Assembly (NCBI GenBank): GCA_023460235.1
Contig: JAEWRE010000083.1
Location: 70,565 to 134,564, forward strand
Direction of reading: 5' to 3'
Source: Bacillota bacterium
Lineage (GTDB): Bacteria; Bacillota; Clostridia; TANB77; CAG-465
Length of the DNA: 64,000 nt
The notes beneath the pieces are model-generated. The model was not told the DNA's origin and did no database searches. It saw nothing but the letters and a program-made list of their open reading frames with translations. The translations under genes were made by a program, and so were the position numbers. This document shows, piece after piece, positions 2,195-34,855 of this stretch (positions within the stretch are counted from its first letter, which is position 1; every line of letters starts with the position of its first letter).

Positions 2195-2220
2195 CCGGTT
2201 TTATAAAAATATAATTTAAA

Positions 2221-2256
2221 AAGACATCAAACCGCTATAAGATTTGATATCTTTTC
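2221..2256. terminator. hairpin terminator downstream of the GH94 gene (likely bidirectional)
   Basis: agacatcaaa / tttgatatct stem (9/10 bp, the mismatch can pair as G-U on one strand) flanked by T/A runs on both sides. Confidence 0.45.
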
Positions 2257-2264
2257 TTAAAATT

Positions 2265-4313
2265 TTATTTATTTGTTAAATAATCTTCTATTATTTTATA
2301 CATCCAAGCAGATGATCCTGTATACCAAGTCCATCCACCACGACCAATATGATTAGGATTAGAATATATATCCGCTGCAACAACAAATGGCTCAACCATG
2401 TATATATCTGCGATTTCTTTATTATCGCTATGAGATATTGGATTTATCAGTTGTAATATATCAGTTCCCTTTTTATAATCTTCCATCTCAAAATATGCTT
2501 TTGCAAGCCATGTAGCTGCGTGAGTATATTGACCACCATTTTCCCTTGTTCCTGGAACATAAGCTTTAATATACCCTGGATTATTTTTAGGATTATCAAA
2601 GGCAGGATATAATAGTTTTACAATTTTATTCTTTTTATCAACTAAATATTTTTCTGCACTTTTTAAACTTCGCTCTAATTCATCATGAACATCTGGATAT
2701 TCTTTCATCGCTATAACTGCCCAAGCTTGTGATATTAAATCAATTTTACACTCTTTATTTTTATTAGATCCTAAAACTTCTCCATTTTCAAAAAATGCTC
2801 TAACAAAATGGTCACCATCCCAAGTATGATCAATTATACTATGTTTAAATATATGCCTTTGTTTCTCACATAATTTTATCATTTCTTCATCATTTTTTAT
2901 TTTAGCTACATTTGCAAATCTCTTTAAGACATCCATCATAAAAAATGTAAGCCAAACAGATTCACCTCTTATATTACTAAAACCATCATTCCAATCACCA
3001 TCACCTATTTCAAGTAATCCGTTAGTTGGATTTATTCTAGATAAACCATACATTATTGTCTTCTTAGCGTGGTCATAAATACTATCATCTTTTTCTATAT
3101 TTTTAAAAACATCATAATATTCTCTTCTACCATTCATTGGTTTATCTTCTAAATATTTAGTTCTAATATCAAGAATTGAATAGTCTTTTGTCTTTTCTAT
3201 ATATTCTGATAATACGTATGGAAGCCATAGATAATCATCACTAAAATATGTTCTTATACCAGCACTATTATGATCATGCCACCAATGAAGCACGTCACCT
3301 TTTTCAAATTGTTTACTTGAATGTAATATAATTTGACTTCTTGTTTTTTCAGGCATACCAGATATAAGAGCAAGTGTGTCTTGAAGTTGATCTCTAAATC
3401 CTATTGCACCACCAGATTGATAAAAACCTGATCTTGCATATAATCTACATACAACAGTTTGATAAAGCAGCCATCCATTTGCCATTATATCTAAATACTC
3501 AGTTCCAGTTTTAAAATTCCTCTTTACAATATTTTTCCAATATTCTTTTGTAATCTCAAATTCACTATCAACTACATCAATAGAATTATATTTATCTTTT
3601 ATATAACTTATATACTCTTCACCTTTATCTGTAGCTCCAAGTATAATTGCAAAAGAAATACTTTCTGATGGGCTAACCTTACCACTTATTTTCATTGTAT
3701 AAGTTTCTGTATCAAATTCATATTTGCAAGGATTATTACTGTCATTTACTAACATTAAAAAGGCAGTACAATCTGAAAATTCTAAGCTATAAGGATTTTT
3801 AAATTCTAGTATACCATTACTTACTCTATTAAGTATATAATTTGTATTTGTATCTTTAGCAACACCAAGTACTGGATCAAGAGTATATCCTATTTCAAAA
3901 CATCTTTCCTCATCATATTTATTTTCAATAGTTATTTTTTGAATTTTTATTGTATCTTCTTTTGGTACAAATATATCCATAGTCTTATTAAAGTTTTCAT
4001 CTTCTTCAATTAACTTAGCATAGCCAAATCCATATGTCAAATTGTAATTTTCTTCATATATACCGGTAAATTTTTCTCCTGGTTCAAAAGTAATCCAATC
4101 ATTGCACCAGTCAGTTAATTTATACTCTCTGCTATTTTTAAAATAGGTATATACGGTACCATAACTAGAAATTATAGTACCGAAGTTTTCATTTGCAATA
4201 ACATTACACCAAGGAAGAGGTGTTTTTGTATTTAAGATATGATATTCATCGCCATCTTGACTGAAACCACCATAAGTGTTAAATGCAATTAAATTATCAT
4301 TATTTATTTTCAT
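2265..4313 (-). CDS. GH94-family glycoside phosphorylase catalytic ((alpha/alpha)6-barrel) domain protein; C-terminal module of a split cyclic beta-1,2-glucan synthase-like enzyme
   Basis: Start set at the ATG at 4313 (MKINNDN...) 6 nt after GAGGAGG. The ORF table starts at TTG 4328. The start overlaps the stop of the upstream 1869-aa ORF by 14 nt (ATGA-type coupling). The protein carries GH94-barrel-like segments (ISGMPEKTRSQIILHSSKQFEKGDVLHWWHDH, GGWTWYTGSSAWMY). Confidence 0.65.
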   Translation of the reverse strand: MKINNDNLIAFNTYGGFSQDGDEYHILNTKTPLPWCNVIANENFGTIISSYGTVYTYFKNSREYKLTDWCNDWITFEPGEKFTGIYEENYNLTYGFGYAKLIEEDENFNKTMDIFVPKEDTIKIQKITIENKYDEERCFEIGYTLDPVLGVAKDTNTNYILNRVSNGILEFKNPYSLEFSDCTAFLMLVNDSNNPCKYEFDTETYTMKISGKVSPSESISFAIILGATDKGEEYISYIKDKYNSIDVVDSEFEITKEYWKNIVKRNFKTGTEYLDIMANGWLLYQTVVCRLYARSGFYQSGGAIGFRDQLQDTLALISGMPEKTRSQIILHSSKQFEKGDVLHWWHDHNSAGIRTYFSDDYLWLPYVLSEYIEKTKDYSILDIRTKYLEDKPMNGRREYYDVFKNIEKDDSIYDHAKKTIMYGLSRINPTNGLLEIGDGDWNDGFSNIRGESVWLTFFMMDVLKRFANVAKIKNDEEMIKLCEKQRHIFKHSIIDHTWDGDHFVRAFFENGEVLGSNKNKECKIDLISQAWAVIAMKEYPDVHDELERSLKSAEKYLVDKKNKIVKLLYPAFDNPKNNPGYIKAYVPGTRENGGQYTHAATWLAKAYFEMEDYKKGTDILQLINPISHSDNKEIADIYMVEPFVVAADIYSNPNHIGRGGWTWYTGSSAWMYKIIEDYLTNK

Positions 4314-7300
4314 CAACATCCTCCTCAATATATTCTTCTGAAAAATCCTCTTTATCTGATTTCACAACTTCAACATCATTACACAAGAATTCACTTATAT
4401 CTTGTATATACTTTCTAGATAAAAACGAAAGTAATTCTATTTCATTCTTATCTAATGAACTAATATTTAATAAATATATATTTCCTCTTGAATAATCCAT
4501 AAATACTGCTCTATCCAAACGTTCTTTTATATATCTATATATTGGTCCGTTTTTTATATCTTTTTCATCAATTAGTAAAATAATATCAATATCAAGTCTT
4601 CTATTTTTTACATAATCCATAAAGGCAATAGTTTCATTTACAATTCCAGCATTTTCAATTTTATTTACATAAACAAGTAATATAGGTAAATCTCCTGATA
4701 TAGAATATTTCCAAAGTAATGATTGATTTATATTTGAATTCCAGAATTTATCACTATCTTGAATATTTCTTTTAAATAATATTTCTTTTATTATATTATT
4801 ATATATATTGGCTCTACCAGGTTCAAGTTTTAAGTACCTTGAGACTACACTATTTAATTCTCTTGAAAGTTTAAATTGATTTTCAATTCCTCTAATATCT
4901 AAATTAATTACAGCAGTTGAAATTCTATATTTACTATCATCAACACCTGTTATACAATAGAATTCTTGTCTTTCATGAGGGTCTAAAATTATATTTGCTC
5001 TATATGAAAGAACTGGCCATAGTGGGTATTTTGAAACATCTGAACCATATGAATCTGTTGTTGTATTTATTAATTTATTTTTATCAGTTTCCATTTCTTT
5101 TTCTAAATCAATTCCAACTAATCTTGAATATACATAAAGATCAGCATCGTTTTCATTTTTTTTCCTTTTACTAGCAACTAATATATCAAGTTCATTATCA
5201 TAGTATGTTTCTATTTGTAAATTATTAAACGAAGGATGAACAATATTAGTCATATAATCTGTCATAGATGGTTCAATATATGTATTTATCAATATTTCTC
5301 TTTTTTCACAACTATTATTATATATACTAACTTTCTTTATTTCAGCGTTATATTCAGGTGATAGGAATACTGTAGTAGTAGTTTCAATATCTTCATCTTC
5401 AATATAATATTCTACCGCATTTAGCATTGAATTAAATACAGTCTTAGTAGTATTCTTATTGTTTAAAGAATATATATCTGAATTTGTAGCATTAACAGTT
5501 CTTCCTGTAGATTTATCAGTAATATATATATAGTTTCCTGTAGTAGAAAGATCTGTAAATCTTTGTTTGTTTACTATTTTATCTTTAAATCTTAAGAAGT
5601 TAGCTCCATTATTTGTAATGATTGAAGAAAGTTCAGCACCCTTTAACATTGCAATATTTAACTCACCATTAAATTCAACAACTTCATCTTCATTTTTTCT
5701 TTCAAATATACTTGAATTAATAAATGTTGTATATTTTTCAATATTTTTTGGTTTAAATTTAGTGTATTGATCATCATTATTTTTTTGAACTTTTTCAATA
5801 TTCTTTTCTCTTTCCTTAAGTAGTAATTCTACAGCTTTTATATCTGGATTTGAATGAAATCTTTCTTTAATAACGCCATTGTTTATATAGTTATTTATAG
5901 AAGATAAAATCATTCCTTGATGATGTGCCATATATGTTTTTACTACTTCATATTTCGTATTATTATCAATATGTTGTTTTGTAAAGTCTATTGATTCATA
6001 AAAACCATATGAAGAATATGCTCCAATTTTTTTCAACCTTTTAATGTTTGCATATACTTCTTGAGGTGCAAAATCTATCATTAATAAAGAGGAGTATGGA
6101 GATACAACCATATAATTGTTAAGTCCTCTCTTAAGTCCAAGCCATGGTATTCCAAATTCTCTATATTGATAATTAAGTTCATTATCTTTAACAGCAAATG
6201 CTGATTCTGATATTCCCCATGGCACATTGTTTCTTTTTGCATATTTTATTTGGCTATATTTAGTAAAAAATAAAGATTGGTCAATTAAAGTGTGTGGGTA
6301 TGATTTGTTGAATATATTTGGCATAAAGTATTCAAAAGCGGTACCACTCCAAGATATAAGTCCTTTATATCCATCAACTTTTATTAAGTTTCTAGATAGT
6401 GCAAACCAATGTTTGGAAGTTATTTGTCTTGTAGCAATTGCAACTAAACTAGTAATTCTACTTTCAGACATTAACATATCATAATAACTATCTAGCAATT
6501 TTCCACTTTCCTGATCATAACCAATTGAAAATAGGTTTCTTGTTGTATCATATAATACTTTAAAGTTTGTTTCAGTTAGTATTTTATCTATTGAATCTAA
6601 TAATGTATCTATTTTAGGATCATATTCAGTTTGTTCCCTTTGACTGTATATACTAGTATCTTTTAACGATAATAGGAATTCTTTTGCAACAAGTAAACAA
6701 GCAATAAAATTACCGCTATCAACTGTTGAAACAAATCTAGGCCTTAATGGTTCTAATGTTTTTATATTGTACCAATTATATAAATGACCATTCCATTTTT
6801 CAAGTTTTTCTATTGTATTAAAAATATTAAGTAATTTATTTAAAGCTTCCTCTTCATTTATAAATTTCAGATCATAAGCACAAATTATTGATTGTACTCC
6901 AAATCCAATATTAGTTGAAGATGTTCTATTTGCAAGTTTATATCTTCTATTTTCTTGAAAATTATCAGTAGGTAAGTAATTATTAATTGGGCTCATTACA
7001 GTATCAAAAAATGTCCATGTTCTTTTTGCAACTTCAATAATTTCTTCATCTTGCTCTTTTTCAAGTATGGCTGTTCTTCCAAGTAAATGATCTTTTCCAA
7101 GTAAATATGCAACAAGAGGTGCAATTATAAAGAAAAGCCCTATAAAATCTTTAAATTCAATATATGCTTTCATATTAACAAATGTAAAATCGCTAGGAAT
7201 ACAAATTATCAATAATCCAAAGATGAGATTTGAAATCATATTTTTATAATAATATATAATGCTGTCTTTTGTCTTTTTTTCTAAGACTTCAGCTGTTGTC

Positions 7301-9909
7301 CATTGTAATAGATGTTTTTTAGTAATTAACATTCTATATAAAGAAATAGTAAATGCAGAAACACATACGCAGAACTTATACGGCATTGTTATAAAGTTAA
7401 AACACATAGTTAAAAGTTCCGCTTGAACTCCATGAATTATAGGTATATACTGCAATTCTTTAGTATGTCGAACTCTTCCAAATAAAAGAGTATCAAGTAT
7501 TGATATTATACTTCCAAAGTTTATAGCTAAAAAAGTCACAATAATTGCTGCAAAGAAACATTTAGCTGATATAAATAACGATAACACTATTGCAAGCATA
7601 GCAAATACATCAAGTGTAGGTCTCCTTAAATTATCAAAGATCTTCCATTTTGATAATAAATTTAATTTTGATCTAGGACTAATTAGCCATCTAATTATTT
7701 GTACGTCTCCTCTATACCACCTATGATTTCTTTTCATATATGCAATGTAGCTACTTGGGAAACCATCTTGTAATTCTATATCACTAGCAAGGCCTGCTCT
7801 AATAATAGAGCCTTCAAGTAAATCATGGCTTAATACTAAATTCTCCGGTATTTGTTTTGAAACAAGATCTTCAAATAATTTTATATCATATATTCCTTTA
7901 CCACAAAATATTGCTTCGCCAAAAATATCTTGATAAACATCAGAAACAGCTGTAGTATAGATATCTATTCCACCAAATCCGCCAAATATTTTTGAAAATA
8001 TAGATTTATTAGCCGCTTCTATATCAAGACCAACAGATGGCTGAATTAATCCATATCCTTTAACAACAATTCCCTTTTTCTCATCAACTATAGGTTGATT
8101 TAGAGGATGTGAAATTATTGATACAAGATCTTTTGCAGTGTTAAGTGATAACTGAGTGTCTTCGTCAATAGTTATAGCATATTTAGCATTAACCACATCT
8201 TTATAAATAATTGTCGCAATTTTATCTATCTCTTCTTCTTTTATTTCACCAAGAACTATCCTATTAAATTGTAAAAGAGCTCCTCTTTTTCTTTCCCAGC
8301 CCATATAACAATTTTCACTTTTTGAATAAACACGTTTTCTATACATAAAGTTAAATAATATATGATCGGCTTCATATTTACTATTTAGTTCATCAAGTTT
8401 TTCTTTTGCATAGCTTAATATTTTATTATCAATGTCCAAAAATTGTTTATCACTAGATATACAATCACCAAGTAACATATAATACATGTTTTCTGTTCTA
8501 TTTGCAAGATAAGTTACTTCCATCTTTTTTATCATTACATCAAGCTTTTCTATTGAAGTAATCATAGTAGGTATTACTACGTATGTAGGATACTTAGCAT
8601 CTATTGTTTTAGCAAAATCAAATCGTGGAAGAATTTCTGGAATCATGAATTTTCTTATTGCATAATTTATAATCTTTCCAAAAACTTCTACATAAAATAC
8701 GAACAAGAAAATCATTGATAATACTATCTGCCAAATTTCAGTAAACAATGTTGTATATGCAGTAGTTATTACCGTAAATTCCAATGCTAAGATTAAAATT
8801 GATACTATATATATTTGAGGTTTTATTTTATTAATTACTTTATTTTCAAATAAATTAAGCATGTAAGGTTTTCCAAGTTCCTTTTTTAAAAGGTATCTCA
8901 TTTCACCTATCAAGAAAAAACCTATATGCATTTTATATTTTTTAGAACAATCAACTGCTTTTCTTGCAACATATACTTCAGAAAAGTTATATTTTTTAGC
9001 AAGTTTAATTATATAATTTCTATATCTATTTTTAGTTTTATAATCACATTTTCTAAATTCATCTGTATAGTCATCTCTTAAGGCTTCATCAACCTTATTT
9101 ACTTTTTCAAAAATTTCTCTAAAGTTTATTCCTTGTAACTGTTTATATGAAAGTATTGCTTTACCTATATAGTCTGTTGTCTTAGCAACTTCCATATGTT
9201 CTTTTACTATAGCTTCATCAATTGTAAAGCCTATTTTCTCTGCTTCTTTTGATAGTATACTAAAGTATTTCTCACCTTTTACTCCTAGTTCTTTTAATCT
9301 ATATGCCATATATTCTACAAAAGCTGTATTTGTGCTTTTGATTTTAGTTGTATCAAGCATATATTCTCTAAAATCTCGAAAATTTTTAAGTTCTTTATAT
9401 AATTCTTTTATAATGTTCTCATCTTCATATTCACCTAAAATTATATTTTCGACTTGAATCTTTTTTAATTGAGAATTTGTTGTATTCATAGCAATTCTTG
9501 CGATGAATTTAAGAAGAGCAATTTTTAGCATAATCATAAACAAATTTAACTCTTCAGAAGTGAGATATGATAATTTTTGATGCTCTTTTAAGCATTCATA
9601 TATATTATTTTGATCAACATAACCAGAATAATTTTCAACTAATTCATATGCTAAATAAAATATACTTATATATTTTTTTCCATCATATGTCTTAACTATT
9701 GGTAGTTTTTTATTTTTTAAATTAACTTCAGAATATTTAATTTCTTGATAAGCTTCTTGAATAATATACATATTATCAAGTAGCCATTGACCTGCTGAAT
9801 GTATTTGAATTTTTAAATCAGTACTTTTTTCTAATATCTTATATGTATCATATATGATATCATAATTTGCTCTAGCTTCCTTAAAAATCCCATGTAGTGT
9901 ATTTTTCAT
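4300..9909 (-). CDS. cyclic beta-1,2-glucan synthase-like membrane glycosyltransferase (GT84-type domain between TM segments) with GH94 N-terminal beta-sandwich region
   Basis: 1869 aa. TM pair near residue 370-420, then a GT-A domain with DxD (ITIDEDTQ) and QxxRW-like (KRNHRWYRGDVQI) motifs, 4-6 further TM helices, then a roughly 900-aa soluble C-terminal region. This topology matches Cgs/NdvB. Confidence 0.65.
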   Translation of the reverse strand: MKNTLHGIFKEARANYDIIYDTYKILEKSTDLKIQIHSAGQWLLDNMYIIQEAYQEIKYSEVNLKNKKLPIVKTYDGKKYISIFYLAYELVENYSGYVDQNNIYECLKEHQKLSYLTSEELNLFMIMLKIALLKFIARIAMNTTNSQLKKIQVENIILGEYEDENIIKELYKELKNFRDFREYMLDTTKIKSTNTAFVEYMAYRLKELGVKGEKYFSILSKEAEKIGFTIDEAIVKEHMEVAKTTDYIGKAILSYKQLQGINFREIFEKVNKVDEALRDDYTDEFRKCDYKTKNRYRNYIIKLAKKYNFSEVYVARKAVDCSKKYKMHIGFFLIGEMRYLLKKELGKPYMLNLFENKVINKIKPQIYIVSILILALEFTVITTAYTTLFTEIWQIVLSMIFLFVFYVEVFGKIINYAIRKFMIPEILPRFDFAKTIDAKYPTYVVIPTMITSIEKLDVMIKKMEVTYLANRTENMYYMLLGDCISSDKQFLDIDNKILSYAKEKLDELNSKYEADHILFNFMYRKRVYSKSENCYMGWERKRGALLQFNRIVLGEIKEEEIDKIATIIYKDVVNAKYAITIDEDTQLSLNTAKDLVSIISHPLNQPIVDEKKGIVVKGYGLIQPSVGLDIEAANKSIFSKIFGGFGGIDIYTTAVSDVYQDIFGEAIFCGKGIYDIKLFEDLVSKQIPENLVLSHDLLEGSIIRAGLASDIELQDGFPSSYIAYMKRNHRWYRGDVQIIRWLISPRSKLNLLSKWKIFDNLRRPTLDVFAMLAIVLSLFISAKCFFAAIIVTFLAINFGSIISILDTLLFGRVRHTKELQYIPIIHGVQAELLTMCFNFITMPYKFCVCVSAFTISLYRMLITKKHLLQWTTAEVLEKKTKDSIIYYYKNMISNLIFGLLIICIPSDFTFVNMKAYIEFKDFIGLFFIIAPLVAYLLGKDHLLGRTAILEKEQDEEIIEVAKRTWTFFDTVMSPINNYLPTDNFQENRRYKLANRTSSTNIGFGVQSIICAYDLKFINEEEALNKLLNIFNTIEKLEKWNGHLYNWYNIKTLEPLRPRFVSTVDSGNFIACLLVAKEFLLSLKDTSIYSQREQTEYDPKIDTLLDSIDKILTETNFKVLYDTTRNLFSIGYDQESGKLLDSYYDMLMSESRITSLVAIATRQITSKHWFALSRNLIKVDGYKGLISWSGTAFEYFMPNIFNKSYPHTLIDQSLFFTKYSQIKYAKRNNVPWGISESAFAVKDNELNYQYREFGIPWLGLKRGLNNYMVVSPYSSLLMIDFAPQEVYANIKRLKKIGAYSSYGFYESIDFTKQHIDNNTKYEVVKTYMAHHQGMILSSINNYINNGVIKERFHSNPDIKAVELLLKEREKNIEKVQKNNDDQYTKFKPKNIEKYTTFINSSIFERKNEDEVVEFNGELNIAMLKGAELSSIITNNGANFLRFKDKIVNKQRFTDLSTTGNYIYITDKSTGRTVNATNSDIYSLNNKNTTKTVFNSMLNAVEYYIEDEDIETTTTVFLSPEYNAEIKKVSIYNNSCEKREILINTYIEPSMTDYMTNIVHPSFNNLQIETYYDNELDILVASKRKKNENDADLYVYSRLVGIDLEKEMETDKNKLINTTTDSYGSDVSKYPLWPVLSYRANIILDPHERQEFYCITGVDDSKYRISTAVINLDIRGIENQFKLSRELNSVVSRYLKLEPGRANIYNNIIKEILFKRNIQDSDKFWNSNINQSLLWKYSISGDLPILLVYVNKIENAGIVNETIAFMDYVKNRRLDIDIILLIDEKDIKNGPIYRYIKERLDRAVFMDYSRGNIYLLNISSLDKNEIELLSFLSRKYIQDISEFLCNDVEVVKSDKEDFSEEYIEEDVDENK

Positions 9910-10092
9910 ATTAACTCAAACCCCTCCAATTATTATTATCATTTATTTTTAAATTATATAATAAAGAAAAAAAAATTGCAACAAAAATGAGAATATAAAG
10001 TTATTTTTTGATTTTATATGATGTAATATGTCAAAAAAGATAGATACACCATATTACATAGTATATCCATCTTCAATTATTAATATTTACAT

Positions 10093-11028
10093 TTATATAT
10101 CAAATTTCAAATCAAAAATCATTTCTTGTTCTTGATCATATTCAAGTTTAAAATTTCTCCGTAAATAATGAATAAATTCTTTCATATTTTTTGATTCAAA
10201 CTCATTTACTAAAACGTATATAGCACCATTACAATCATTGCAAAATATGTTTATTTGTAATGCGCTAAGTAGTATTCCATTATATTGGTAAATCTGTTTT
10301 AAAATTTTAACACTTTGAATATTAGATAATTTTTTTATTGACTTTAATATTTCAAAAAATACACTGTTTCGAAAAGATATCTTAATAGTTTTATCTTCTT
10401 CAAAAAATACATTACTGCTAACATATTCATTTAAATTTAAAAGAAATATCTTAAATAATATTTTTCTAAAAGAAATCAAAAATGGGCTTTTAAACATCTT
10501 CTCACTCGTTTCTAATTCAGCTAATACCTTCGTTTCACTAGTATCAATTGATGGAATAAATATCTTTTCTACCCCTTTTCCATTTATTCCATGCATTCCA
10601 TAGGATAAATTACCTTTTACTCTAGAAAAAGCAGAAATTTCCCCAACATTTTTAAATTTGAAATTATAATATGATATTTTACATTCAAGAGTTGCTTTTC
10701 TATTAGACTTACCTAATTTTTTAATCTTATCTAAAAGAAAATTATTATTTATTCCATCTAATATTTTACTATCAATAGCATCGTCTTTCATATCATTATT
10801 ATAATATACTAATTCAAGACCAGACTCAGTAACTAGTTTTATTTCTACTTTAAACATAGAACAATGCAGATGTTCACAAATAGCCTTAAGACCAAATTTT
10901 GATGTTAGAAAATCATATTCAATATCACTTTTTTTTACTCTAATTACCAACATGTCTTTTAAAAACTTAGGATTAATATTGAATACAGAAAAAATATCAC
11001 TTATTTTTTTATCCCATTTTCCATACAC
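10093..11028 (-). CDS. hypothetical protein (311 aa, soluble, Lys/Asn-rich)
   Basis: Long ORF with consistent AT-rich codon usage and no recognisable motif. Sits between typA and the Cgs-like genes. Confidence 0.45.
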   Translation of the reverse strand: MYGKWDKKISDIFSVFNINPKFLKDMLVIRVKKSDIEYDFLTSKFGLKAICEHLHCSMFKVEIKLVTESGLELVYYNNDMKDDAIDSKILDGINNNFLLDKIKKLGKSNRKATLECKISYYNFKFKNVGEISAFSRVKGNLSYGMHGINGKGVEKIFIPSIDTSETKVLAELETSEKMFKSPFLISFRKILFKIFLLNLNEYVSSNVFFEEDKTIKISFRNSVFFEILKSIKKLSNIQSVKILKQIYQYNGILLSALQINIFCNDCNGAIYVLVNEFESKNMKEFIHYLRRNFKLEYDQEQEMIFDLKFDI

Positions 11029-11281: not shown

Positions 11282-13093
11282 TTATTTTCTGCTTTCTCTG
11301 TTTCTTTGACTTGGATCAAGTGTTCTTTTTCTAAGTCTAATATTTATAGGTGTAACTTCAACAAGTTCATCATCAGAAATAAATTCAATTGATTGTTCCA
11401 ATGTAAGTTTTTTAGGTGGAACAAGTTTTAATGCATCGTCACTTCCAGATGCTCTTGTATTTGTTAAGTGTTTTTCTTTACATACGTTAATTGTTAAATC
11501 TTCACTTCTAGAGTTTTCTCCAACAATCATACCAACATAAACTTCTGTACCTGCGCCAATAAATAAAGCTGATCTTTCTTGTGCTTGGAAAAGTCCATAA
11601 GTAGTTGATTTACCTTGTTCAAATACTATAACTGCTCCTCTTTGACGAGTTACAATTTCTCCTCTATCTTTTTCATAACCTGCAAAGCTATGGTTCATAA
11701 TACCATTTCCTTTTGTATCAGTCATGAATTCTCCTCTGTAACCTATAAGACCACGAGCTGGAATTTTAAATTCAAGTCTTGTAAATCCTACTTGAGAATT
11801 TGAAGGCATCATGTTAGTCATTTCACCTTTTCTGTAACCTATTTTTTCCATAACAACACCAACATATTCTTCTGGTATATCTATTGTTAAGTTTTCCATC
11901 GGTTCGCATTTAACGCCATCAACTGTTTTAAATATAACTGTAGGACGAGATACTAATAATTCATATCCTTCTCTTCTCATATTTTCTATTAATATTGAAA
12001 GATGTAATTCACCTCTGCCTGATACCTTAAAACTATCAGCAGTATCAGTATCTTCAACTCTTAAAGATACATTAGTTTCTAACTCTTTATATAGTCTATC
12101 TCTTATGTGTCTTGAAGTAATTAATTTCCCTTCTTTACCTGCAAAAGGTCCATTGTTTACACTAAATGTCATAGAAACAGTTGGTTCATCAATATCAACA
12201 AATTCAACTGGTTCTGGGCTATTAGGGTCTGCAATTGTTTCACCAATGTTTATACCTTCTACACCGTTTACTGCAACAATATCACCACAATATGCTTCTT
12301 CAACTTCTACTCTTTTAAGACCTGAGTATGTGAATAATTTTCCAATTTTTATATTTTGAATGCTACCGTCTTTTTTGCAAAGTGCAACTTGTTGAGCATT
12401 TTTAATTGTTCCTCTAGTTATTCTACCAATACCAACTCTTCCTGTATATTCATCAGAGTCAATATTTGTAACTAATAATTGTAAAGGTTCATCTTTATCA
12501 CCCTTAGGTTCTGGAACAGTATTTATAATTGTATCAAATAATGGTTGCATATCACTATTATCATCTTCAAGTGATAATCTTGCAAATCCATTTTTTCCTG
12601 ATGCATAAACAACTTTAAAATCAAGCTGTTCATCACTAGCATTTAAGTCCATGAAAAGCTCTAAAACTTCATCTACAACTTCAACTGGTCTTGCACCTGG
12701 TCTATCAATTTTATTTACAACAACTATAGGTACTAAATCTAAAGCTAAAGCTTTGCTTAGAACGAATCTTGTTTGAGGCATTGGTCCATCAAAAGCGTCT
12801 ACTAAAAGTACAACACCATCTACCATTTTTAATACTCTTTCAACTTCTCCACCAAAATCAGCATGCCCTGGAGTATCAACTATATTTATTTTTATATCTT
12901 TATACTGTATAGCAGTATTCTTAGATAATATTGTTATTCCTCTTTCTTTTTCAATATCATTTGAGTCCATAACACGTTCTGCAACTTGTTCATTTTCTCT
13001 AAATGTTCCACTTTGTCTAAGTAGTGCATCAACTAAAGTAGTTTTACCATGATCAACGTGAGCTATTATGGCTACATTTCTTAAATTTTTCAT
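11282..13093 (-). CDS. typA: translational GTPase TypA/BipA
   Basis: 603 aa. G1 AHVDHGKTT, G3 DTPGH, G4 NKID. EF-G-like domain order without domain IV. Confidence 0.95.
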   Translation of the reverse strand: MKNLRNVAIIAHVDHGKTTLVDALLRQSGTFRENEQVAERVMDSNDIEKERGITILSKNTAIQYKDIKINIVDTPGHADFGGEVERVLKMVDGVVLLVDAFDGPMPQTRFVLSKALALDLVPIVVVNKIDRPGARPVEVVDEVLELFMDLNASDEQLDFKVVYASGKNGFARLSLEDDNSDMQPLFDTIINTVPEPKGDKDEPLQLLVTNIDSDEYTGRVGIGRITRGTIKNAQQVALCKKDGSIQNIKIGKLFTYSGLKRVEVEEAYCGDIVAVNGVEGINIGETIADPNSPEPVEFVDIDEPTVSMTFSVNNGPFAGKEGKLITSRHIRDRLYKELETNVSLRVEDTDTADSFKVSGRGELHLSILIENMRREGYELLVSRPTVIFKTVDGVKCEPMENLTIDIPEEYVGVVMEKIGYRKGEMTNMMPSNSQVGFTRLEFKIPARGLIGYRGEFMTDTKGNGIMNHSFAGYEKDRGEIVTRQRGAVIVFEQGKSTTYGLFQAQERSALFIGAGTEVYVGMIVGENSRSEDLTINVCKEKHLTNTRASGSDDALKLVPPKKLTLEQSIEFISDDELVEVTPINIRLRKRTLDPSQRNRESRK

Positions 13094-13358: not shown

Positions 13359-14015
13359 TTATAATTGTTCAAAAATTCCTTTTATAGAAAATTCATAAGC
13401 AGTCATTTTTTGAAACATGCCATCAATTTGTTTGTCATAAGTTCTAGATTGTAACCTGCCATCAAAATTTACCCGTTTACCTACTTCAAAATATTCATAA
13501 GGATCCCTTGCTAGATTTCCCCACATAATGCAGGGTATATAGTACGAATAACCCAAAATACTATTTACAGCTACTAAAACATCCCTAATTTCTCTTCCAA
13601 GTGGTGTTTTTCTATATTCTCCAAGCTTTACCGTTGTGCCAAATATTTCCCCTGAATTTGTAAACATATTAACAATTGTATTTGGGATAAAGGATTCCTC
13701 TATGTATTCTTCAACTTCACTTGCGAAGACATATATAAGTAATACCCTCTTTTTTCCATTAAACTTGTTCTCACTTCTAATTTCACCATCAATTATATAT
13801 TTATCCAATAATCGAGGTTTAATTTCTCTTAAAATATCAACTTTTATCCTTACTTGTAGCTTATCAATTGTAAGACTCTTCCGAAAAACATCAAATGTGA
13901 ACTCATAATAATGAAATTTATCTTTTTCATCATACCTAAGCTCAGGTTCACTCATTATTTGTCCAATGAGTGTAATCTCACTTTTATCCTCAAATACATT
14001 TTCTTTGTAGCTCAT
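13359..14015 (-). CDS. SSB-like OB-fold protein (two OB-like halves; C-terminal half resembles single-stranded DNA-binding protein)
   Basis: 218 aa. The C-terminal segment REIRDVLVAVNS...YYIPCIMWGNLARDPYEYFEVGKRVNFDGRLQSRTY follows the SSB OB-fold pattern (WGxLA..., xGRLqxRxY). There is no acidic C-terminal tail. Confidence 0.45.
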   Translation of the reverse strand: MSYKENVFEDKSEITLIGQIMSEPELRYDEKDKFHYYEFTFDVFRKSLTIDKLQVRIKVDILREIKPRLLDKYIIDGEIRSENKFNGKKRVLLIYVFASEVEEYIEESFIPNTIVNMFTNSGEIFGTTVKLGEYRKTPLGREIRDVLVAVNSILGYSYYIPCIMWGNLARDPYEYFEVGKRVNFDGRLQSRTYDKQIDGMFQKMTAYEFSIKGIFEQL

Positions 14016-25765: not shown

Positions 25766-27175
25766 TTATACCTCCTTATTTCTTATATATTCTTTTTGTT
25801 CTTTTGACATCTTTTCTGTTGCATAGCTCAACAATATGCTAGGCAATTTTTTATTATTATTTTTCTCTTTAAGATATTTGATTATAGCATCATTATCTTT
25901 TTTATATATTTCCCTTAAAACCCATCCTGTTGCTTTTTGAAATAGATGATAATCTTCATATATAACTAAATCACAAATATATAATGGTAACTCAGTATCA
26001 GAATCTCTTACTAAAGTTAAAAGAGACACTATTCCAATTCTTCTTACCCACATTCTATCATCATTTATATATTTAAGTATGACTTCTTTTTTATCGTCAT
26101 TACTAAGTTTTAAAAGATATTTTCCAACTATATTTGGTCCAACTTCATCAGTTAAATCCCAATTATTTATATATGTAATATTTTGCCATACAAAATCTAC
26201 AATATTTTTCATCTCTTCTAAATCATTTTCTCTAGAAATTATCTCGTTTATACAAAATATTGCAAACCTTCTATAATCATGATACTTTGAAGTAATAAAT
26301 TTTTGAAGAACATTAATATCTAAGTATTTGTACCACTTTCTTGCTACTAAACGTATATCTGGTACACTTATACCAAGCAAAATATCTCCTTCTCCATATC
26401 CACCAGGTATTATCTGTAATATCTTTGTATCTAATTCAAGATTACCGTTTCTTGGAGATAGTTCAATTGAATTTATTATATTAATTTCAAGTATTCTTCT
26501 ATATAATATGTCTAATGTAGAGTCTTTTGTTAAATAACTTCCAATAACTAAATTATCACATAATCTACGGATAGGCTCAGATATAGTATCAAAGTTTATA
26601 CCACCATCTACCTGAATTATTTTGTCTCCAAATTTTTCTTTTGCATCTGATAATTTAAAACCAACATTTTCTATATATTCTTGACCACCATATCCTGGTT
26701 CAACACTCATAACTAATAACAAATCAAATACATCTATATACTTACCTAAAGTAGCCATATTGGTTTCTGGTTTTATAGAAACACCAATTGTTATATTTCT
26801 TTCTTTTATACTTTTAACTTTCTTTTTTAAATATGTTAGTGCTTTTTCAAATTCTTTTATTTCTCTATGAATAGTAACATTATCAGCACCGTATTCAATA
26901 GCTTTATCTATATATCCATCTTCTATTGGGTTTTCAACCATTAAATGTACATCTACAAAGAATCCAAACTCTTTTACTACTTTTATTTTTTCAAGATCAA
27001 CTCCAGTATTTGATACAAATTTTCCATCCATAACATCAAAATGTACATTAATATTAAGTAGGTCTTGAATTTTAGTACTTATTTTTTCAAGTCTTGAATT
27101 TACTTCTTTTACTTTATTTAAGAAGCTCTCTAACTGCTCAACATTTAATATTGATATAGATATAGTTTTAGCCAT
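25766..27175 (-). CDS. rpe: ribulose-phosphate 3-epimerase fused to a C-terminal DNA-alkylation-repair (AlkD-like HEAT-repeat) domain
   Basis: N-terminal roughly 225 aa carry Rpe motifs (HFDVMDGKFV, VDVHLMV, LVMSVEPGYGGQ, VDGGIN). C-terminal roughly 240 aa match the AlkD/DNA_alkylation family (DDRMWVRRIGIVSL, ATGWVLREI). Overlaps mtnN by 1 nt. Confidence 0.7.
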   Translation of the reverse strand: MAKTISISILNVEQLESFLNKVKEVNSRLEKISTKIQDLLNINVHFDVMDGKFVSNTGVDLEKIKVVKEFGFFVDVHLMVENPIEDGYIDKAIEYGADNVTIHREIKEFEKALTYLKKKVKSIKERNITIGVSIKPETNMATLGKYIDVFDLLLVMSVEPGYGGQEYIENVGFKLSDAKEKFGDKIIQVDGGINFDTISEPIRRLCDNLVIGSYLTKDSTLDILYRRILEINIINSIELSPRNGNLELDTKILQIIPGGYGEGDILLGISVPDIRLVARKWYKYLDINVLQKFITSKYHDYRRFAIFCINEIISRENDLEEMKNIVDFVWQNITYINNWDLTDEVGPNIVGKYLLKLSNDDKKEVILKYINDDRMWVRRIGIVSLLTLVRDSDTELPLYICDLVIYEDYHLFQKATGWVLREIYKKDNDAIIKYLKEKNNNKKLPSILLSYATEKMSKEQKEYIRNKEV

Positions 27176-30625: not shown

Positions 30626-32692
30626 TTAGTTTCTCCTTAAAGCCACAATTGGATCCATTTTAGCAGCTTTAACAGAAGGTATTATTCCAGCAATTGCTGA
30701 AAGTATGACACATGCAAGTACTAATACACCAGTTGCTGATACACTAAGTACTGCAATGTTTACATTACCAATATTCATACCATATGATGTTATAATGTTA
30801 GAAACCATTTTGTTTACTACTTCACAGAATAAGTTAGTTATAAATATTCCTATTATACCTGAAAGAAGTCCAATTATTATAGATTCTGATAAGAAAATAT
30901 TTCTTATATCTTTGCTTCGTGCTCCAATTGCTCTTAAGATACCTATCTCTGATATTCTTTCTATAACAGATATAAATACTACAATTCCAATCATTAGAAC
31001 TGCTACTACAATTGAAATACTTGAAAATCCAATTAAAACGTTTCTTATAACTTTAAGTACTGTATCTACACTATTAAACATTGTAGTTGCTGCTCCTTCA
31101 ACTTTATATTTTGTTTGAGTAGCATTTATTTCATTAATAGTATTTTTTATTTCATCAATACTTAGATTTTTATCAACATACATATATACTTGATAAAATT
31201 TCATATCTTCTTTTTTCTTCTCAAATAATTCTTCATATAGTTTTAATGTATCCATACTATATTGATACATAGAATAGCCCATTGTGTTTACTGATGTAAT
31301 ACCAACAATCTTAAAATCTAATATTTTATTTTCATCGCTCTCTTGACCATAACTAGAATTAGGGCCAAACTTAGCATAAATGTTCTTTCCAATTAAATCT
31401 TCAATCTTCATTGAACTATTATCACCAATTAAATATTCAGCTGTATTAAGTGAAACTACAATTTCTTTTTCATTTTCTGGCTTTTTGCCAAGAGTTAAGT
31501 CACCTTCAACATTTTCATATGGTTCAAATCCATTCATTGTAGTAAATGATGCACTTTCAACTTCAGTTGTCTTTGCTCTACTTTCACTTAAAGAGAATTC
31601 ACTAAAGAAAGTTCTCATTACATCAGTTGGTACAGCCCAGTAGTGAGTTATATTACCATTAGAAGATTTTATATTTTCAATATCTGAATAGCTAAATGTT
31701 TTCATTTCTTGCATAGATGAGAATATTTCTGAAGAAGACTTATCATCATCTGATGTTTTTTGAGATACCATCAACATATTAGTAGGCATCATACTATCAA
31801 TTTGTGCTTTAGCTATTTTCATAGTTCCATTTGAAAGTGCAAGTGCCATTCCAACACCAATTATTCCTATTGACATTCCTATTGCTGTTGCAATAGTCCT
31901 TGCTTTTCTTCCAAAAATATTTTTTAAAGAATATTTAAACGCTTTAAAAAAGCTCATAGAAGATTTAGTAAATTCTTTTGAAGTATTTTCTTCATTTCTT
32001 GTTTCTATTTTTTCTTCTTCTTTTTTATTTTCTTCAATACTTATAACTTTTCCATCTTCCATTTTTATTATTGAATCTGCATATTCATTTGCAAGTTCAT
32101 CAGAATGGGTAATTATAATTACAAGTTTTGTTTTTGAAAGTTCTCTTAAAAGTTCCATTACTTCTAAGCTCATTTTCGTATCAAGTGCGCCTGTTGGTTC
32201 ATCTGCAAGTATTATATCTGGATCATTTATTAATGCTCTTGCGATAGCAACTCTTTGCTTTTGACCACCAGATAAAACATTTACTTTTCTTTTTGCAAAT
32301 TTATCTAGCTCAACTTTTTTTAATGTGTCCATTATTTTTTCTTTCTTTTCTTTTGAATTAGAAAGACTAAGTGCAACTTTTACATTATCATAAGCACTAA
32401 ATTTATTTATTAGATAAAATTGTTGAAATATAAACCCTATTGTGTTTTTTCTATAACTATCTAAATCTCTATCTTTGAAGTTTTTAAGTGATTTACCATT
32501 TATAACTACGTCACCTTCAAAATCACTATCTAAGGCTCCAACAATATTCATTAAAGTTGTTTTTCCACTACCAGATGGTCCAAGTATACAAACAATACCT
32601 TTTTCATTGATTTCAAAGTTTACATTATCTAATGCTTTGAAATTTTCATTTTTCATTTTATATATTTTTGATTTTATATCTACTTTTAACAT
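30626..32692 (-). CDS. fused ABC transporter ATPase + FtsX/MacB-type permease
   Basis: N-terminal Walker A GPSGSGKTT, signature LSGGQKQRVAIARAL, Walker B ILADEPTGALD. C-terminal 4-TM FtsX permease with a large extracytoplasmic domain. Confidence 0.8.
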   Translation of the reverse strand: MLKVDIKSKIYKMKNENFKALDNVNFEINEKGIVCILGPSGSGKTTLMNIVGALDSDFEGDVVINGKSLKNFKDRDLDSYRKNTIGFIFQQFYLINKFSAYDNVKVALSLSNSKEKKEKIMDTLKKVELDKFAKRKVNVLSGGQKQRVAIARALINDPDIILADEPTGALDTKMSLEVMELLRELSKTKLVIIITHSDELANEYADSIIKMEDGKVISIEENKKEEEKIETRNEENTSKEFTKSSMSFFKAFKYSLKNIFGRKARTIATAIGMSIGIIGVGMALALSNGTMKIAKAQIDSMMPTNMLMVSQKTSDDDKSSSEIFSSMQEMKTFSYSDIENIKSSNGNITHYWAVPTDVMRTFFSEFSLSESRAKTTEVESASFTTMNGFEPYENVEGDLTLGKKPENEKEIVVSLNTAEYLIGDNSSMKIEDLIGKNIYAKFGPNSSYGQESDENKILDFKIVGITSVNTMGYSMYQYSMDTLKLYEELFEKKKEDMKFYQVYMYVDKNLSIDEIKNTINEINATQTKYKVEGAATTMFNSVDTVLKVIRNVLIGFSSISIVVAVLMIGIVVFISVIERISEIGILRAIGARSKDIRNIFLSESIIIGLLSGIIGIFITNLFCEVVNKMVSNIITSYGMNIGNVNIAVLSVSATGVLVLACVILSAIAGIIPSVKAAKMDPIVALRRN

Positions 32693-32704
32693 GTTGCCCC
32701 CTCC

Positions 32705-34855
32705 TTACTCATCTCTTAGCGCGTCAATTACATGCATTTTAGTTGCTTTCTTTGAAGGGAAATAACCAGCAAGTGCAGAAACTAATGCACTAAATGCAAT
32801 TATAATAATTATTGTTGCTAGAGGGAATGTAATATTTTCTGTGAATGGTACAGTTGAAATAGGTATAGTAATAATTCCAGGTAAATCTAAATTTAATACT
32901 TTAGATATTACTTTTTCAAGTATTGGTGCAAGTCCAAAAGAAATTATTAATCCAAGTATTCCTGAAAATACACCCATTAATATAGCTTCACTTTCAAATA
33001 TTCTTATTACATCTTTATTTCTTCCACCAACAGCCTTAATAATTCCAATTTCAACTTTTCTTTCAACTATACTTGAATATAGAACTATTGAAGTCATAAT
33101 TGAAGATACTACAAGTGCTATTACAATGAATACACTTATTACAATTTGAGCCATAAGTATTAATTGAGCAAATATGTTTTTTACTACAATTGCTACGTTA
33201 AGTGCAGAGTATCCAGCCTTTTGAGAACCAGATCCCATTATAGAGATTTTACCTGCTCCGCCTTTTGCTTCATCACTTATGTAGTCTGAAACTGCTTTAG
33301 TATCATTTACATCTTTTACAGTAACTTCGTAAAATGCTGAATTTTTAGTTACTAAATCATATACTGTATCTCCAGTAGGTACTTTTATCTCTTTTAACCA
33401 TTCTACAGCATCATCATAAACATAATATAACGCTTGTATTCCAATGTCTAATTCATTTACAACACCAGATACCGTAAATTCTCTTTCAAATGTTAAATTT
33501 GAATCTTCTATACCATAAGTAATAACAACTTTCTTACCTATTATTTTAGTTAAATCATCTGTACTCAAATCAATACTTTTAAGTAGTTTACGAGCAGTTG
33601 ACTGATTTACTAGTACTTCATAATTTCCTTTTTTGGGTAAATTTCCATCAACATTTTCTTTTAAGAATTCTAAATTATTCTCATTAGCAAGAGAGTATAT
33701 CATTGTGTTAGAAAGATTATATGCTGTTTTATCTGCTCCATTTGTTTTTTCATCACTAATTCTAACTTTTGATGAGTTAAAACTAACAAATTGTCTTACA
33801 TCAGTAACATTTGATTTTATATACTCATCATTTAATAATTTATCATAATCACTTAAATTTTTAGTATACTCAATTTTATCTTTACCATTATCATCTTTTT
33901 TCATATCTGATTTTTCAAGAACAAGGACATTAGCTGTTCCAAATTTATTTAATTGCTTATCAATGTATATATTTGAACCATTTCCAAGACCAGTTATAAG
34001 GGTAAAACCTATTATACCAACACATCCTGCAAGTGTAGTAATTGCAACTCTTCCTTTTTTCTTTAACATATTTCTAAGAGAAAGCTTAAATGCCTCTCTA
34101 AATGACATGCTAGTATCTTTTTTCTTTAAAGTAGATTCAGCACTATTTATCTTTTCTTCAGTTATAACAGTATCGCTTTCAATTTTACCATCTCTAACCT
34201 TTATAATTCTACTTGAATATTCTTCTGCAAGTGCATTATTATGTGTAACCATTATAACTAGTTTTTCTTTAGCTATCTCTTTTATTAGCTCCATTATTTG
34301 CTTACCAGTCTTTTGATCAAGTGCACCTGTTGGTTCATCGGCTAGTATTATATCTGGATCATTAGCTAATGCTCTTGCAATAGCTACTCTTTGTTTTTGT
34401 CCACCTGATAGTTCAGATGGTCTATGATTTATATGATTTTCTAAACCAACTTTTTTTAGTAATTCTCTTGCTCTTTCTTTTCTTTTAGAATAGCTAAGAC
34501 CAATTAAATTCATAACTATTTCTACATTTTCAAGAGCAGTTAAATGCTCAATTAAATTAAAGTTTTGAAAAACAAAACCAATATTATTTTTTCTATATAA
34601 ATCCCAATCTTTCTTTTTAAATTTCTTTGAAGTTTTATTTCCAATCACAAGTTCACCACTTGTTGGAAAATCAAGGCCTGCAATAATATTTAGTAAAGTT
34701 GATTTACCACTACCAGACGGTCCTACAATAGAAACAAATTCTCCTTTTTCAAAAGAAAAATTTACATTTTCAAGTGCAACAAATTCTTCCTTTTTGCTTA
34801 TTTTAAAACTTTTTTTTACATTTTTTAATTCTAATATCATACTTCTCCTCTCCAT
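32705..34855 (-). CDS. fused ABC transporter ATPase + FtsX/MacB-type permease (paralog of downstream gene)
   Basis: Same architecture and motifs as 30626..32692 (GPSGSGKST, LSGGQKQRVAIARAL). 12-nt gap to the paralog. Confidence 0.8.
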   Translation of the reverse strand: MERRSMILELKNVKKSFKISKKEEFVALENVNFSFEKGEFVSIVGPSGSGKSTLLNIIAGLDFPTSGELVIGNKTSKKFKKKDWDLYRKNNIGFVFQNFNLIEHLTALENVEIVMNLIGLSYSKRKERARELLKKVGLENHINHRPSELSGGQKQRVAIARALANDPDIILADEPTGALDQKTGKQIMELIKEIAKEKLVIMVTHNNALAEEYSSRIIKVRDGKIESDTVITEEKINSAESTLKKKDTSMSFREAFKLSLRNMLKKKGRVAITTLAGCVGIIGFTLITGLGNGSNIYIDKQLNKFGTANVLVLEKSDMKKDDNGKDKIEYTKNLSDYDKLLNDEYIKSNVTDVRQFVSFNSSKVRISDEKTNGADKTAYNLSNTMIYSLANENNLEFLKENVDGNLPKKGNYEVLVNQSTARKLLKSIDLSTDDLTKIIGKKVVITYGIEDSNLTFEREFTVSGVVNELDIGIQALYYVYDDAVEWLKEIKVPTGDTVYDLVTKNSAFYEVTVKDVNDTKAVSDYISDEAKGGAGKISIMGSGSQKAGYSALNVAIVVKNIFAQLILMAQIVISVFIVIALVVSSIMTSIVLYSSIVERKVEIGIIKAVGGRNKDVIRIFESEAILMGVFSGILGLIISFGLAPILEKVISKVLNLDLPGIITIPISTVPFTENITFPLATIIIIIAFSALVSALAGYFPSKKATKMHVIDALRDE

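Follow-up and report, generated by a model that had tools for sequence, protein, structure and literature searches.

A conserved two-gene locus for a probable cyclic β-1,2-glucan synthase in a lineage of uncultured gut Clostridia

Cyclic β-1,2-glucan synthase (Cgs) is among the largest single-chain enzymes of bacteria, and it was not until 2024 that its structure and its mechanism were worked out. We analysed a stretch of 64,000 nucleotides (nt) from a Bacillota bacterium (Clostridia; TANB77; CAG-465), taken from GenBank assembly GCA_023460235.1 (contig JAEWRE010000083.1, forward-strand positions 70,565 to 134,564). The whole of this stretch is called the window, and its coordinates are counted from its first letter. 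Two adjoining genes in it, open reading frame (ORF) 1 and ORF2, together carry the modules of a Cgs, divided between a large and a small protein. The locus has the appearance of a functional, evolutionarily fixed two-subunit form of a known enzyme, in a pattern that recurs in Clostridia and is apparently undescribed. We judge it likely that the two products make up a functional two-subunit Cgs, which arose by gene fission and whose phosphorylase pocket is completed across both chains.

The window has a G+C content of about 27%, and most of its genes lie on the minus strand. A previous description of the locus, made from the letters without database searches (the sequence-only reading), had reported two ORFs, with GAGGAGG 6 nt before an ATG at 4313 and a 14-nt overlap between the genes, and we found them exactly so, on the minus strand. 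The length it gave for ORF2, 687 amino acids (aa), holds for the open frame 2265..4328 when counted from its first TTG, at 4328. From the ATG at 4313 the protein has 682 aa, and this start matches public gene calls (P0001, 682 aa). The junction reads ...TATATTGAGGAGGATGTTGATGAAAATAAATAATGAT, in the order GAGGAGG-ATGTTG-ATG-AAAATAAA-TAA, and ORF2 lies in the +1 frame relative to ORF1. The two genes and their junction are as follows:

4300..9909, minus strand: ORF1, ATG start, 1869 aa; membrane-anchored large subunit of Cgs
2265..4313, minus strand: ORF2, 682 aa from the ATG at 4313; soluble small subunit of Cgs
4320..4326, minus strand: Shine-Dalgarno (SD) sequence GAGGAGG for ORF2, within the ORF1 coding sequence, 6 nt before the ATG at 4313-4311
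4300..4313, minus strand: 14-nt stop/start overlap (ORF2 ATG at 4313-4311, ORF1 TAA at 4302-4300); putative translational coupling site

Both products matched the solved Cgs of Agrobacterium tumefaciens (Atu). Residues 9-1782 of ORF1 aligned with Atu Cgs 40-1916 (E = 1e-233, phmmer against PDB 8rf9/8rf0), and ORF2 aligned with positions 2025-2741 of the same chain (E = 1.8e-128, 433 bits). Since both match in order, the pair is collinear with a complete Cgs. The Atu enzyme, like those of Brucella and Sinorhizobium, has the same order of modules, namely an N-terminal domain (NTD), a GT84 domain, a region of six transmembrane (TM) helices, a cyclase (CY) domain, GP1, a Rossmann-fold-like (RFL) subdomain, GP2 and GP3 (PMC10901819). 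It is, however, one chain of ~2800 aa, whereas the window enzyme consists of two polypeptides of 1869 and 682 aa, cut at the linker between RFL and GP2. The trait of a single polypeptide (~2400-3000 aa) is thus absent, which is a departure in gene organisation and not in module content.

ORF1 comprises the N-terminal domain, GT84, the TM helices, a GH189 cyclase, GP1 and the Rossmann-like subdomain, in that order, and Pfam recognised a Glycoamylase match (1142-1355) and a GH94 supersandwich (1420-1655) in it. No Pfam or NCBIfam model covered the GT84 region, which drew weak MdoH matches alone (E = 1.6e-4). Because the PDB search gives the GT84 homology directly, this is a gap in the two libraries and not a missing domain, and the glycosyltransferase assignment of the sequence-only reading stands. 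The Cgs/NdvB topology that it had proposed was likewise borne out by hydropathy and by the Atu alignment, with a TM pair, the DxD and RW motifs and about four later TM segments. The hydropathy segments at 366-418 (two) and ~773-937 (about four) fit a six-helix anchor around the glycosyltransferase domain, the helix count being approximate with so crude a method. The large soluble region that had been assigned to ORF1 is also present. It turned out to be made up of the GH189 cyclase, GP1 and the Rossmann-like subdomain, so that the GH94 module itself is cut in two. The parts of ORF1 are located as follows:

8656..8814, minus strand: first TM helix pair (aa ~366-418), from a Kyte-Doolittle scan; aligns to the Atu Cgs TM region
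7630..8622, minus strand: GT84 domain (aa ~430-760), from residue-level alignment to Atu Cgs
7090..7617, minus strand: second TM block (aa ~765-940), about four helices, from hydropathy and alignment to Atu Cgs
5800..7032, minus strand: cyclase domain (CY, GH189; aa ~960-1370)
4945..5652, minus strand: GP1, the first GH94 β-supersandwich (aa 1420-1655; PF06165, E = 3.9e-26), equivalent to Ndom1 of SOGP
4384..4683, minus strand: RFL subdomain (aa ~1743-1842), equivalent to Atu RFL 1847-2012
4303..4380, minus strand: acidic C-terminal tail (aa ~1844-1869), predicted to be disordered; contains the ribosome-binding site of ORF2

ORF2 is built of a GP2 β-sandwich (aa ~8-200) and a GH94 (α/α)6 catalytic domain (258-678; PF17167, E = 3.5e-99), the phosphorylase barrel that had been predicted for it. 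Pfam found one GH94 supersandwich besides the catalytic domain, and the phosphate-site motif GGQYTHAA lies at residues 593-600. The N-domain of ORF2 is of the GP2/Ndom2 sandwich type only, the Ndom1-type GP1 being on ORF1. Free GH94 enzymes (LpSOGP, 5h3z; cellobiose and chitobiose phosphorylases) have a like N-domain, (α/α)6 domain, catalytic aspartate and GGQYTH, but ORF2 is much less similar to them in sequence than to the Cgs C-terminus. Its best free match was a cellobiose phosphorylase (CBP; E = 1.4e-47), whose C-terminal β-domain it lacks, and free GH94 enzymes reached at most 166 bits.

Counterparts exist in the pair for every functional residue named by Sedzicki et al. for Atu Cgs (PMC10901819; numbering of the 8rf0 chain) and by Tanaka et al. 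for the cyclase (PMC10834661), the latter from the enzyme of Thermoanaerobacter italicus (Ti). The UDP-binding and catalytic aspartates, the RW motif, the primer tyrosine, the cyclase glutamates and the GH94 catalytic aspartate are all matched:

GT84, D482: Atu D527, a UDP-coordinating aspartate
GT84, R540: Atu R586
GT84, D582 and D584 (DxD motif, D582-E-D584): Atu D624 and D626
GT84, Y651, the primer tyrosine: Atu Y694
GT84, D696, the catalytic base: Atu D739
GT84, R730, W731 and R733 (RW motif, N728-H-R-W731): Atu R773, W774 and R776
Cyclase, S1061 and D1064: Atu S1101 and D1104
Cyclase, E1149, the acid/base: Atu E1300, equal to Ti E1356
Cyclase, E1235, the nucleophile: Ti E1442
Cyclase, H1329: Ti H1536
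ORF2 (GH94), D308: Atu D2393
ORF2 (GH94), D443, the catalytic acid: Atu D2528

The primer tyrosine lies in GGIDIYTT, which aligns with RGIDPY694 of Atu Cgs (the IF1-homology loop); it is invariant, and its glucosylation is predicted. The 17 functional residues that were checked, this tyrosine included, were present and invariant across 23 species-level genomes of the clade, in which identity to the window protein was 47-80% for ORF1 and 58-77% for ORF2. Invariance at such divergence points to purifying selection on both genes. Alignment to Cgs and to GH94 enzymes, which the sequence-only reading had suggested as a check, therefore left every catalytic residue examined in place.

The cyclase region of ORF1 matched the cyclization domain of the Ti enzyme (8wy1) at E = 1.7e-123. 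At aa ~1075-1100 it lacks the four-helix insert of ~120-140 aa seen in the Atu enzyme (~120 aa) and in the Ti enzyme, which is implicated in the back-to-back dimers of Atu Cgs. We rejected the missing insert as a distinctive trait. Of 68 fused homologues, 16 have the short domain as well, and the insert is therefore a variable accessory.

When one genome per GTDB species was scanned, 32 loci of this kind came to light, all from uncultured 'Clostridia bacterium' metagenome-assembled genomes (MAGs) and the gut bins Clostridium sp. CAG:465, CAG:1219 and CAG:921. Enough upstream sequence to judge was available at 28 of them, and metagenome loci added two, giving 30 informative loci. All 30, examined for fusion, were split at the same domain boundary (ORF2 identity 58-77%). 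Where ORF1-like genes could be cleanly extracted they encoded 1829-1876 aa and ended beside the start of the ORF2-like gene. The relative frame was +1 in most pairs, +2 in several and 0, with an in-frame stop, in two (L013 and L027), and the extremes among the junctions were an overlap of 20 nt and a gap of 34 nt. Each of the 30 junctions examined had a GGAGG- or GAGG-type SD sequence 6-13 nt (mostly 7-12) before the ORF2 start. The best 120 ORF2 homologues from a search of 5.8 billion clusters were 645-696 aa long (119 of them 678-696 aa) at 65-77% identity, and the cluster family to which ORF2 belongs runs to hundreds of proteins, each of ~680 aa. The 7645-nt two-gene region of the window itself recurred without a single base difference in an ENA MAG scaffold and a Logan assembly of run SRR13358388, two assemblies that may derive from the same sample. 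Signs of damage were seen at two related loci: in a roe deer rumen MAG (L033, ~2460-10050) the Cgs frames are broken across frames 1 and 3, and in L027 (7868-7998) ORF1 stops 129 nt ahead of the ORF2 start. For either locus, decay to a pseudogene or a faulty assembly could be the reason.

Two explanations would return the window locus to a single chain. A sequencing or assembly frameshift in a single-chain Cgs, or its recent decay into a pseudogene, would account for the +1 relation with a 14-nt overlap, which is what a 1-nt indel would give, and such artefacts do exist in the family (L033, L027 and a stand-alone protein, P0324, described below). Against this, the sequence is identical in two assemblies, the catalytic residues of both halves are invariant with no sign of decay, every informative relative is split, and ORF2 belongs to a family of hundreds of proteins of uniform length. 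We regard this explanation as effectively refuted. If ribosomes were instead programmed to shift by +1 at AAA-TAA in the overlap, a fused, full-length Cgs would result, and the two-ORF layout would be a recoding signal. A +1 slip there (4305-4300) joins the frames exactly, and a stop codon with an upstream SD-like element resembles the prfB frameshift site, in which that element lies 3 nt upstream of the slip codon. In the window ~17 nt separate the SD sequence from the putative slip codon downstream of it (AAA, 4305-4303), and what is conserved among relatives is an SD sequence at initiation distance from a start codon. A single slip cannot fuse the pairs with a +2 relation, an in-frame stop or gaps of up to 34 nt, and we consider frameshifting of this kind very improbable. 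Varying frames and gaps with a kept SD sequence and start cannot be explained by a one-base error or by a conserved programmed frameshift. Judged by this comparison, the split is genuine, as the sequence-only reading had supposed in preferring a split to a frameshift.

The C-terminal half of Atu Cgs consists of GP1, RFL (1847-2012), GP2 and GP3 (PMC10901819). Atu 1935 has its counterpart ~87 residues before the end of ORF1, and Atu 2044 is matched by residue 8 of ORF2; this puts the cut at the boundary between RFL and GP2, Atu ~2012-2040. We folded an artificial single-chain concatenate of ORF1 1390-1869 and ORF2 with AlphaFold2, using an alignment from natural single-chain GP halves. The model (mean predicted local distance difference test score, pLDDT, 75.7) comprised, in order, a sandwich, a helical linker, an α/β subdomain, a disordered stretch, a second sandwich and an (α/α)6 barrel, and it superposed on Atu Cgs at a TM-score of 0.84-0.85. 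GP1 appeared in it as a β-sandwich, and the RFL assignment, a subdomain described in PMC10901819, follows from the alternating strand/helix pattern of model residues 354-453. The pLDDT fell below 50 at residues 455-483 of the concatenate, a stretch made up of the ~26 C-terminal residues of ORF1 and the three N-terminal residues of ORF2. The model thus shows the parts of ORF1 and ORF2 to agree with the known fold and places the break in a flexible linker; assembly is not thereby proven.

In a search against representatives at 50% identity, the window clade collapsed to one representative (P0014). The other matches were ~36-46% identical, save one 379-aa fragment at 60%, and most were fused proteins of 2400-2990 aa. 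The nearest fused proteins were short forms of ~2500-2560 aa, from Bacilli and Bacteroidales MAGs among others, and Cgs homologues are widespread in Bacilli, Bacteroidales and Clostridia. A profile search with scattered stand-alone proteins, followed by a look-up of gene context, found further two-gene Cgs:

Lachnospiraceae (cultured Lacrimispora xylanisolvens, L. defluvii and L. aerotolerans; Herbinix and Mobilitalea MAGs): 1934 aa and 797-818 aa, 5-nt gap, cut between RFL and GP2
'Clostridiales bacterium' MAG: 1768 aa and 679 aa, 2-nt gap, cut between RFL and GP2
P0163 lineage: partial upstream gene and 669 aa, 28-nt gap, cut between RFL and GP2
Thermohalobacter berrensis (cultured): 1604 aa and 1247 aa, 9-nt gap, cut between CY and GP1, one boundary earlier

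The Lachnospiraceae pairs have the same two-gene layout and break point as the window pair, with GT84-CY-GP1-RFL, then an SD sequence, then GP2-GP3, but are of independent origin, and their small subunit is 115-135 aa longer than ORF2. One such pair was seen on a metagenome scaffold (L039, 9001-11394 with upstream 3191-8995; 1934 and 797 aa), which shares a protein cluster with Lacrimispora xylanisolvens WP_104438052.1. In T. berrensis (L040, 1647-12744; GCA_003609645.1, MCIB01000038.1) the genes are likewise adjacent and co-directional, encoding GT84-CY and GP1-GP3, but the earlier cut keeps the whole GH94 module on one chain. An 820-aa NTP_transferase-Hexapep-PGM_PMM_I fusion, which could supply a sugar nucleotide, precedes that pair. 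Stand-alone representatives that were fragments or frameshifts were left out of the count of splits: P0324 (1250 aa) falls, at ≥90% identity, into one cluster with a fused protein of 2886 aa (P0455), and P0226 is probably, with P0162, a fragment or frameshift of a fused gene. At a further locus (L038, 9001-11310) stands a GP2-GP3 homologue belonging to one of several clusters of exactly 769 aa, and the 9 kb to each side of it hold no large-subunit Cgs gene. This protein may have arisen from a Cgs C-terminus as a free phosphorylase.

A first neighbour-joining (NJ) tree, with 146 sequences, was so star-like that it gave the window clade no clear position. In a second, bootstrapped NJ tree (64 sequences, ORF2-equivalent region, unrooted), the window clade and the Lachnospiraceae clade were each monophyletic in 100/100 replicates and were joined in 0/100. 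P0163 grouped with the window clade (98/100), and the Lachnospiraceae split clade was sister to a fused 2857-aa protein (100/100). That the two split clades never join, and that the Lachnospiraceae clade is nested within fused proteins, indicates at least two independent fissions at the same linker.

The following mechanism would fit the two genes. The GT84 domain of ORF1 would use UDP-glucose to glucosylate its own Tyr651 and would then extend the β-1,2 chain, which the GH189 cyclase (E1149/E1235) would cut from the primer and close into a ring. ORF2, with GP2 and the barrel bearing Asp443, would dock non-covalently on GP1 and the Rossmann-like subdomain at the ORF1 C-terminus, and so restore the rigid GP platform by which a single-chain Cgs trims and guides the glucan chain. 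The stop/start overlap and internal SD sequence would couple translation of the genes, leading to roughly 1:1 synthesis and to assembly. The fission of a fused gene most likely took place in the disordered inter-domain linker, in an ancestor of this lineage of uncultured gut Clostridia. It is in this sense that we infer a two-chain assembly, enzymatic activity, a cyclic product and the direction of the evolutionary change.

The pocket of GH94 enzymes lies between the N-domain sandwich and the catalytic domain, with the sandwich supplied in cis in LpSOGP and by the other subunit in cellobiose phosphorylase (PMC5309861). Because the Ndom1-equivalent GP1 is on ORF1 and the barrel on ORF2, the phosphorylase pocket of the window enzyme is, by analogy, probably a two-chain composite of GP1 from ORF1 with GP3 from ORF2. 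In dimeric free GH94 enzymes the pocket sandwich comes from a second copy of the same protein, whereas here it would come from a different protein. Truncation of Atu Cgs to residues 1-1846 abolishes function, and the GP catalytic aspartate is dispensable (PMC10901819). Since the truncation destroys function, ORF2 is likely to be needed at least as a scaffold, and ORF1 alone would be unlikely to suffice.

It is unlikely that the two genes work independently, with ORF1 as a self-sufficient synthase and cyclase and ORF2 as a free soluble phosphorylase of β-1,2-oligoglucans (or other substrates) in catabolism or recycling. The dispensable GP aspartate of the A. tumefaciens enzyme (PMC10901819), the name 'cellobiose phosphorylase' given to ORF2-type proteins in sources and the orphan GP2-GP3 homologues of the L038 type would all agree with such an arrangement. 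Adjacency and coupling are, however, strict throughout the clade, and ORF2 scores far higher against the Cgs C-terminus than against any free GH94 enzyme. The Ndom1-type domain that would complete its pocket is also not in ORF2 but on ORF1, and loss of GP2-GP3 abolishes the function of Atu Cgs. An ancestral split, in which a GT84-cyclase protein and a separate GH94 phosphorylase were later fused in other lineages, would be compatible with the unrooted tree, where the window clade and P0163 sit on a long branch whose attachment to fused proteins has 42/100 support. But ORF1 already possesses GP1 and RFL, so the break cuts through the GH94 module instead of running between modules. Nearly all other lineages are fused, and the independent Lachnospiraceae split at the same site is nested in fused proteins at 100/100. 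We consider an ancestral split improbable.

Several points weigh against a functional two-subunit Cgs arisen by fission. Its assembly is deduced from homology together with the modelling of an artificial fusion, for which single-chain proteins supplied the alignment, and the locus is known here from sequence. The grouping of the window clade with the short fused forms was recovered in 42/100 replicates, so the direction of fission rests on parsimony and on the break inside the GH94 module. The orphan 769-aa protein at L038, with no Cgs neighbour, indicates that the GP2-GP3 module can stand alone. The proteobacterial system includes an exporter (ChvA/NdvA/Cgt), whereas no ChvA/NdvA-type exporter (ABC_membrane with ABC_tran) was found among the ten largest other ORFs of the window. 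That search found just two MacB-type proteins (ABC_tran-MacB_PCD-FtsX, 30626-34855), ~20 kb from the pair. Unlike A. tumefaciens, the host is a low-GC gut Clostridia bacterium assumed from its taxonomy to have no periplasm, and a cyclic glucan would need a fate and a role in such a cell.

The sequence-only reading had considered the presence of a Cgs in a Gram-positive genome noteworthy, which was overstated. A Firmicute Cgs, that of T. italicus (TiCGS), has already been characterised and supplied the founding GH189 member (PMC10834661), so a Cgs in a Gram-positive is not new; homologues are widespread, and splits occur in Lachnospiraceae and Thermohalobacter as well. The residues E1356, E1442 and H1536 of TiCGS correspond to E1149, E1235 and H1329 of the window enzyme. 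The domain studied was residues 1005-1591, and the paper treats TiCGS as a single protein and reports no split. In one study, CAZy yielded 1930 GT84 'intact CGSs' (PMC12102758). We found no paper on a split or two-gene Cgs, and nothing specific on Cgs in Clostridia, in a literature coverage that was incomplete, so this absence is no proof that none exists.

What has been found here is a modest, incremental variation of an enzyme that is already well described. Nevertheless, the natural cut between RFL and GP2 shows where Cgs can be divided without loss of catalytic residues, and the smaller soluble subunit and shortened membrane subunit lend themselves to expression and structural studies. The split enzyme is also a natural test of whether the phosphorylase half serves mainly as a scaffold. 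ORF2-type proteins are named in their sources as hypothetical protein, cellobiose phosphorylase or 'GH36-type glycosyl hydrolase domain-containing protein', and for the Lachnospiraceae small subunits the cellobiose phosphorylase and GH36-type labels are probably a systematic mis-annotation. Corrected annotation matters here, as the current names hide a likely cyclic-glucan pathway in common gut Clostridia. It is a speculative and doubtful suggestion that a dissociable phosphorylase subunit lets these uncultured, small-genome bacteria tune or switch glucan length or cyclisation, that the β-1,2-glucan of a bacterium with neither a periplasm nor a linked ChvA-type exporter is released or exposed on the cell surface in the gut and could there affect the host, like the cyclic glucan of Brucella, and that recurrent fission at the same linker reflects selection and not drift.

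The cgs pair is flanked by typA (11282-13093) and by tig-clpP (834-2120 and 185-796), and the order typA, cgs pair, tig-clpP-clpX is kept in relatives at 65% identity. Expression signals around the pair are consistent with its being a bicistronic unit of its own between typA and tig-clpP:

9921..9927, minus strand: SD sequence GGAGGGG for ORF1, 11 nt before the ATG at 9909
9953..9981, minus strand: promoter-like TTGCAA-17-TATAAT, ~44 nt upstream of the ORF1 start; consensus match only
2218..2256, minus strand: terminator-like hairpin and T-run, 9 nt past the ORF2 stop; consensus scan only

Upstream of the pair lies a 311-aa ORF (10093-11028, minus strand) with a weak, partial Ham1/XTP-diphosphatase match (E = 5.8e-6, residues 92-178). 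We rejected this Ham1-like gene as a part of the system: the slot is variable, and relatives at 65% identity have a 162-aa YbaK-type tRNA_edit gene there.

Elsewhere on the minus strand of the window, we observed tandem genes for fused MacB-type ABC transporters at 30626-32692 and 32705-34855 (688 and 716 aa), each with ABC_tran, MacB_PCD and FtsX in one chain. The gene at 13359-14015 encodes a 218-aa SSB-family protein whose OB-fold match is confined to residues 120-207, the N-terminal ~120 aa lying outside it, and which matched NCBIfam PRK05813 below the cutoff of that model. At 25766-27175, a 469-aa protein joins ribulose-phosphate 3-epimerase and DNA_alkylation repair domains in an unusual fusion. 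A 1020-aa ORF at 57923-60985 matched no Pfam family at E ≤ 1e-5, and the adjoining 734-aa ORF at 61541-63745 had a weak Big_13 Ig-like match alone; the products of both may be surface proteins.

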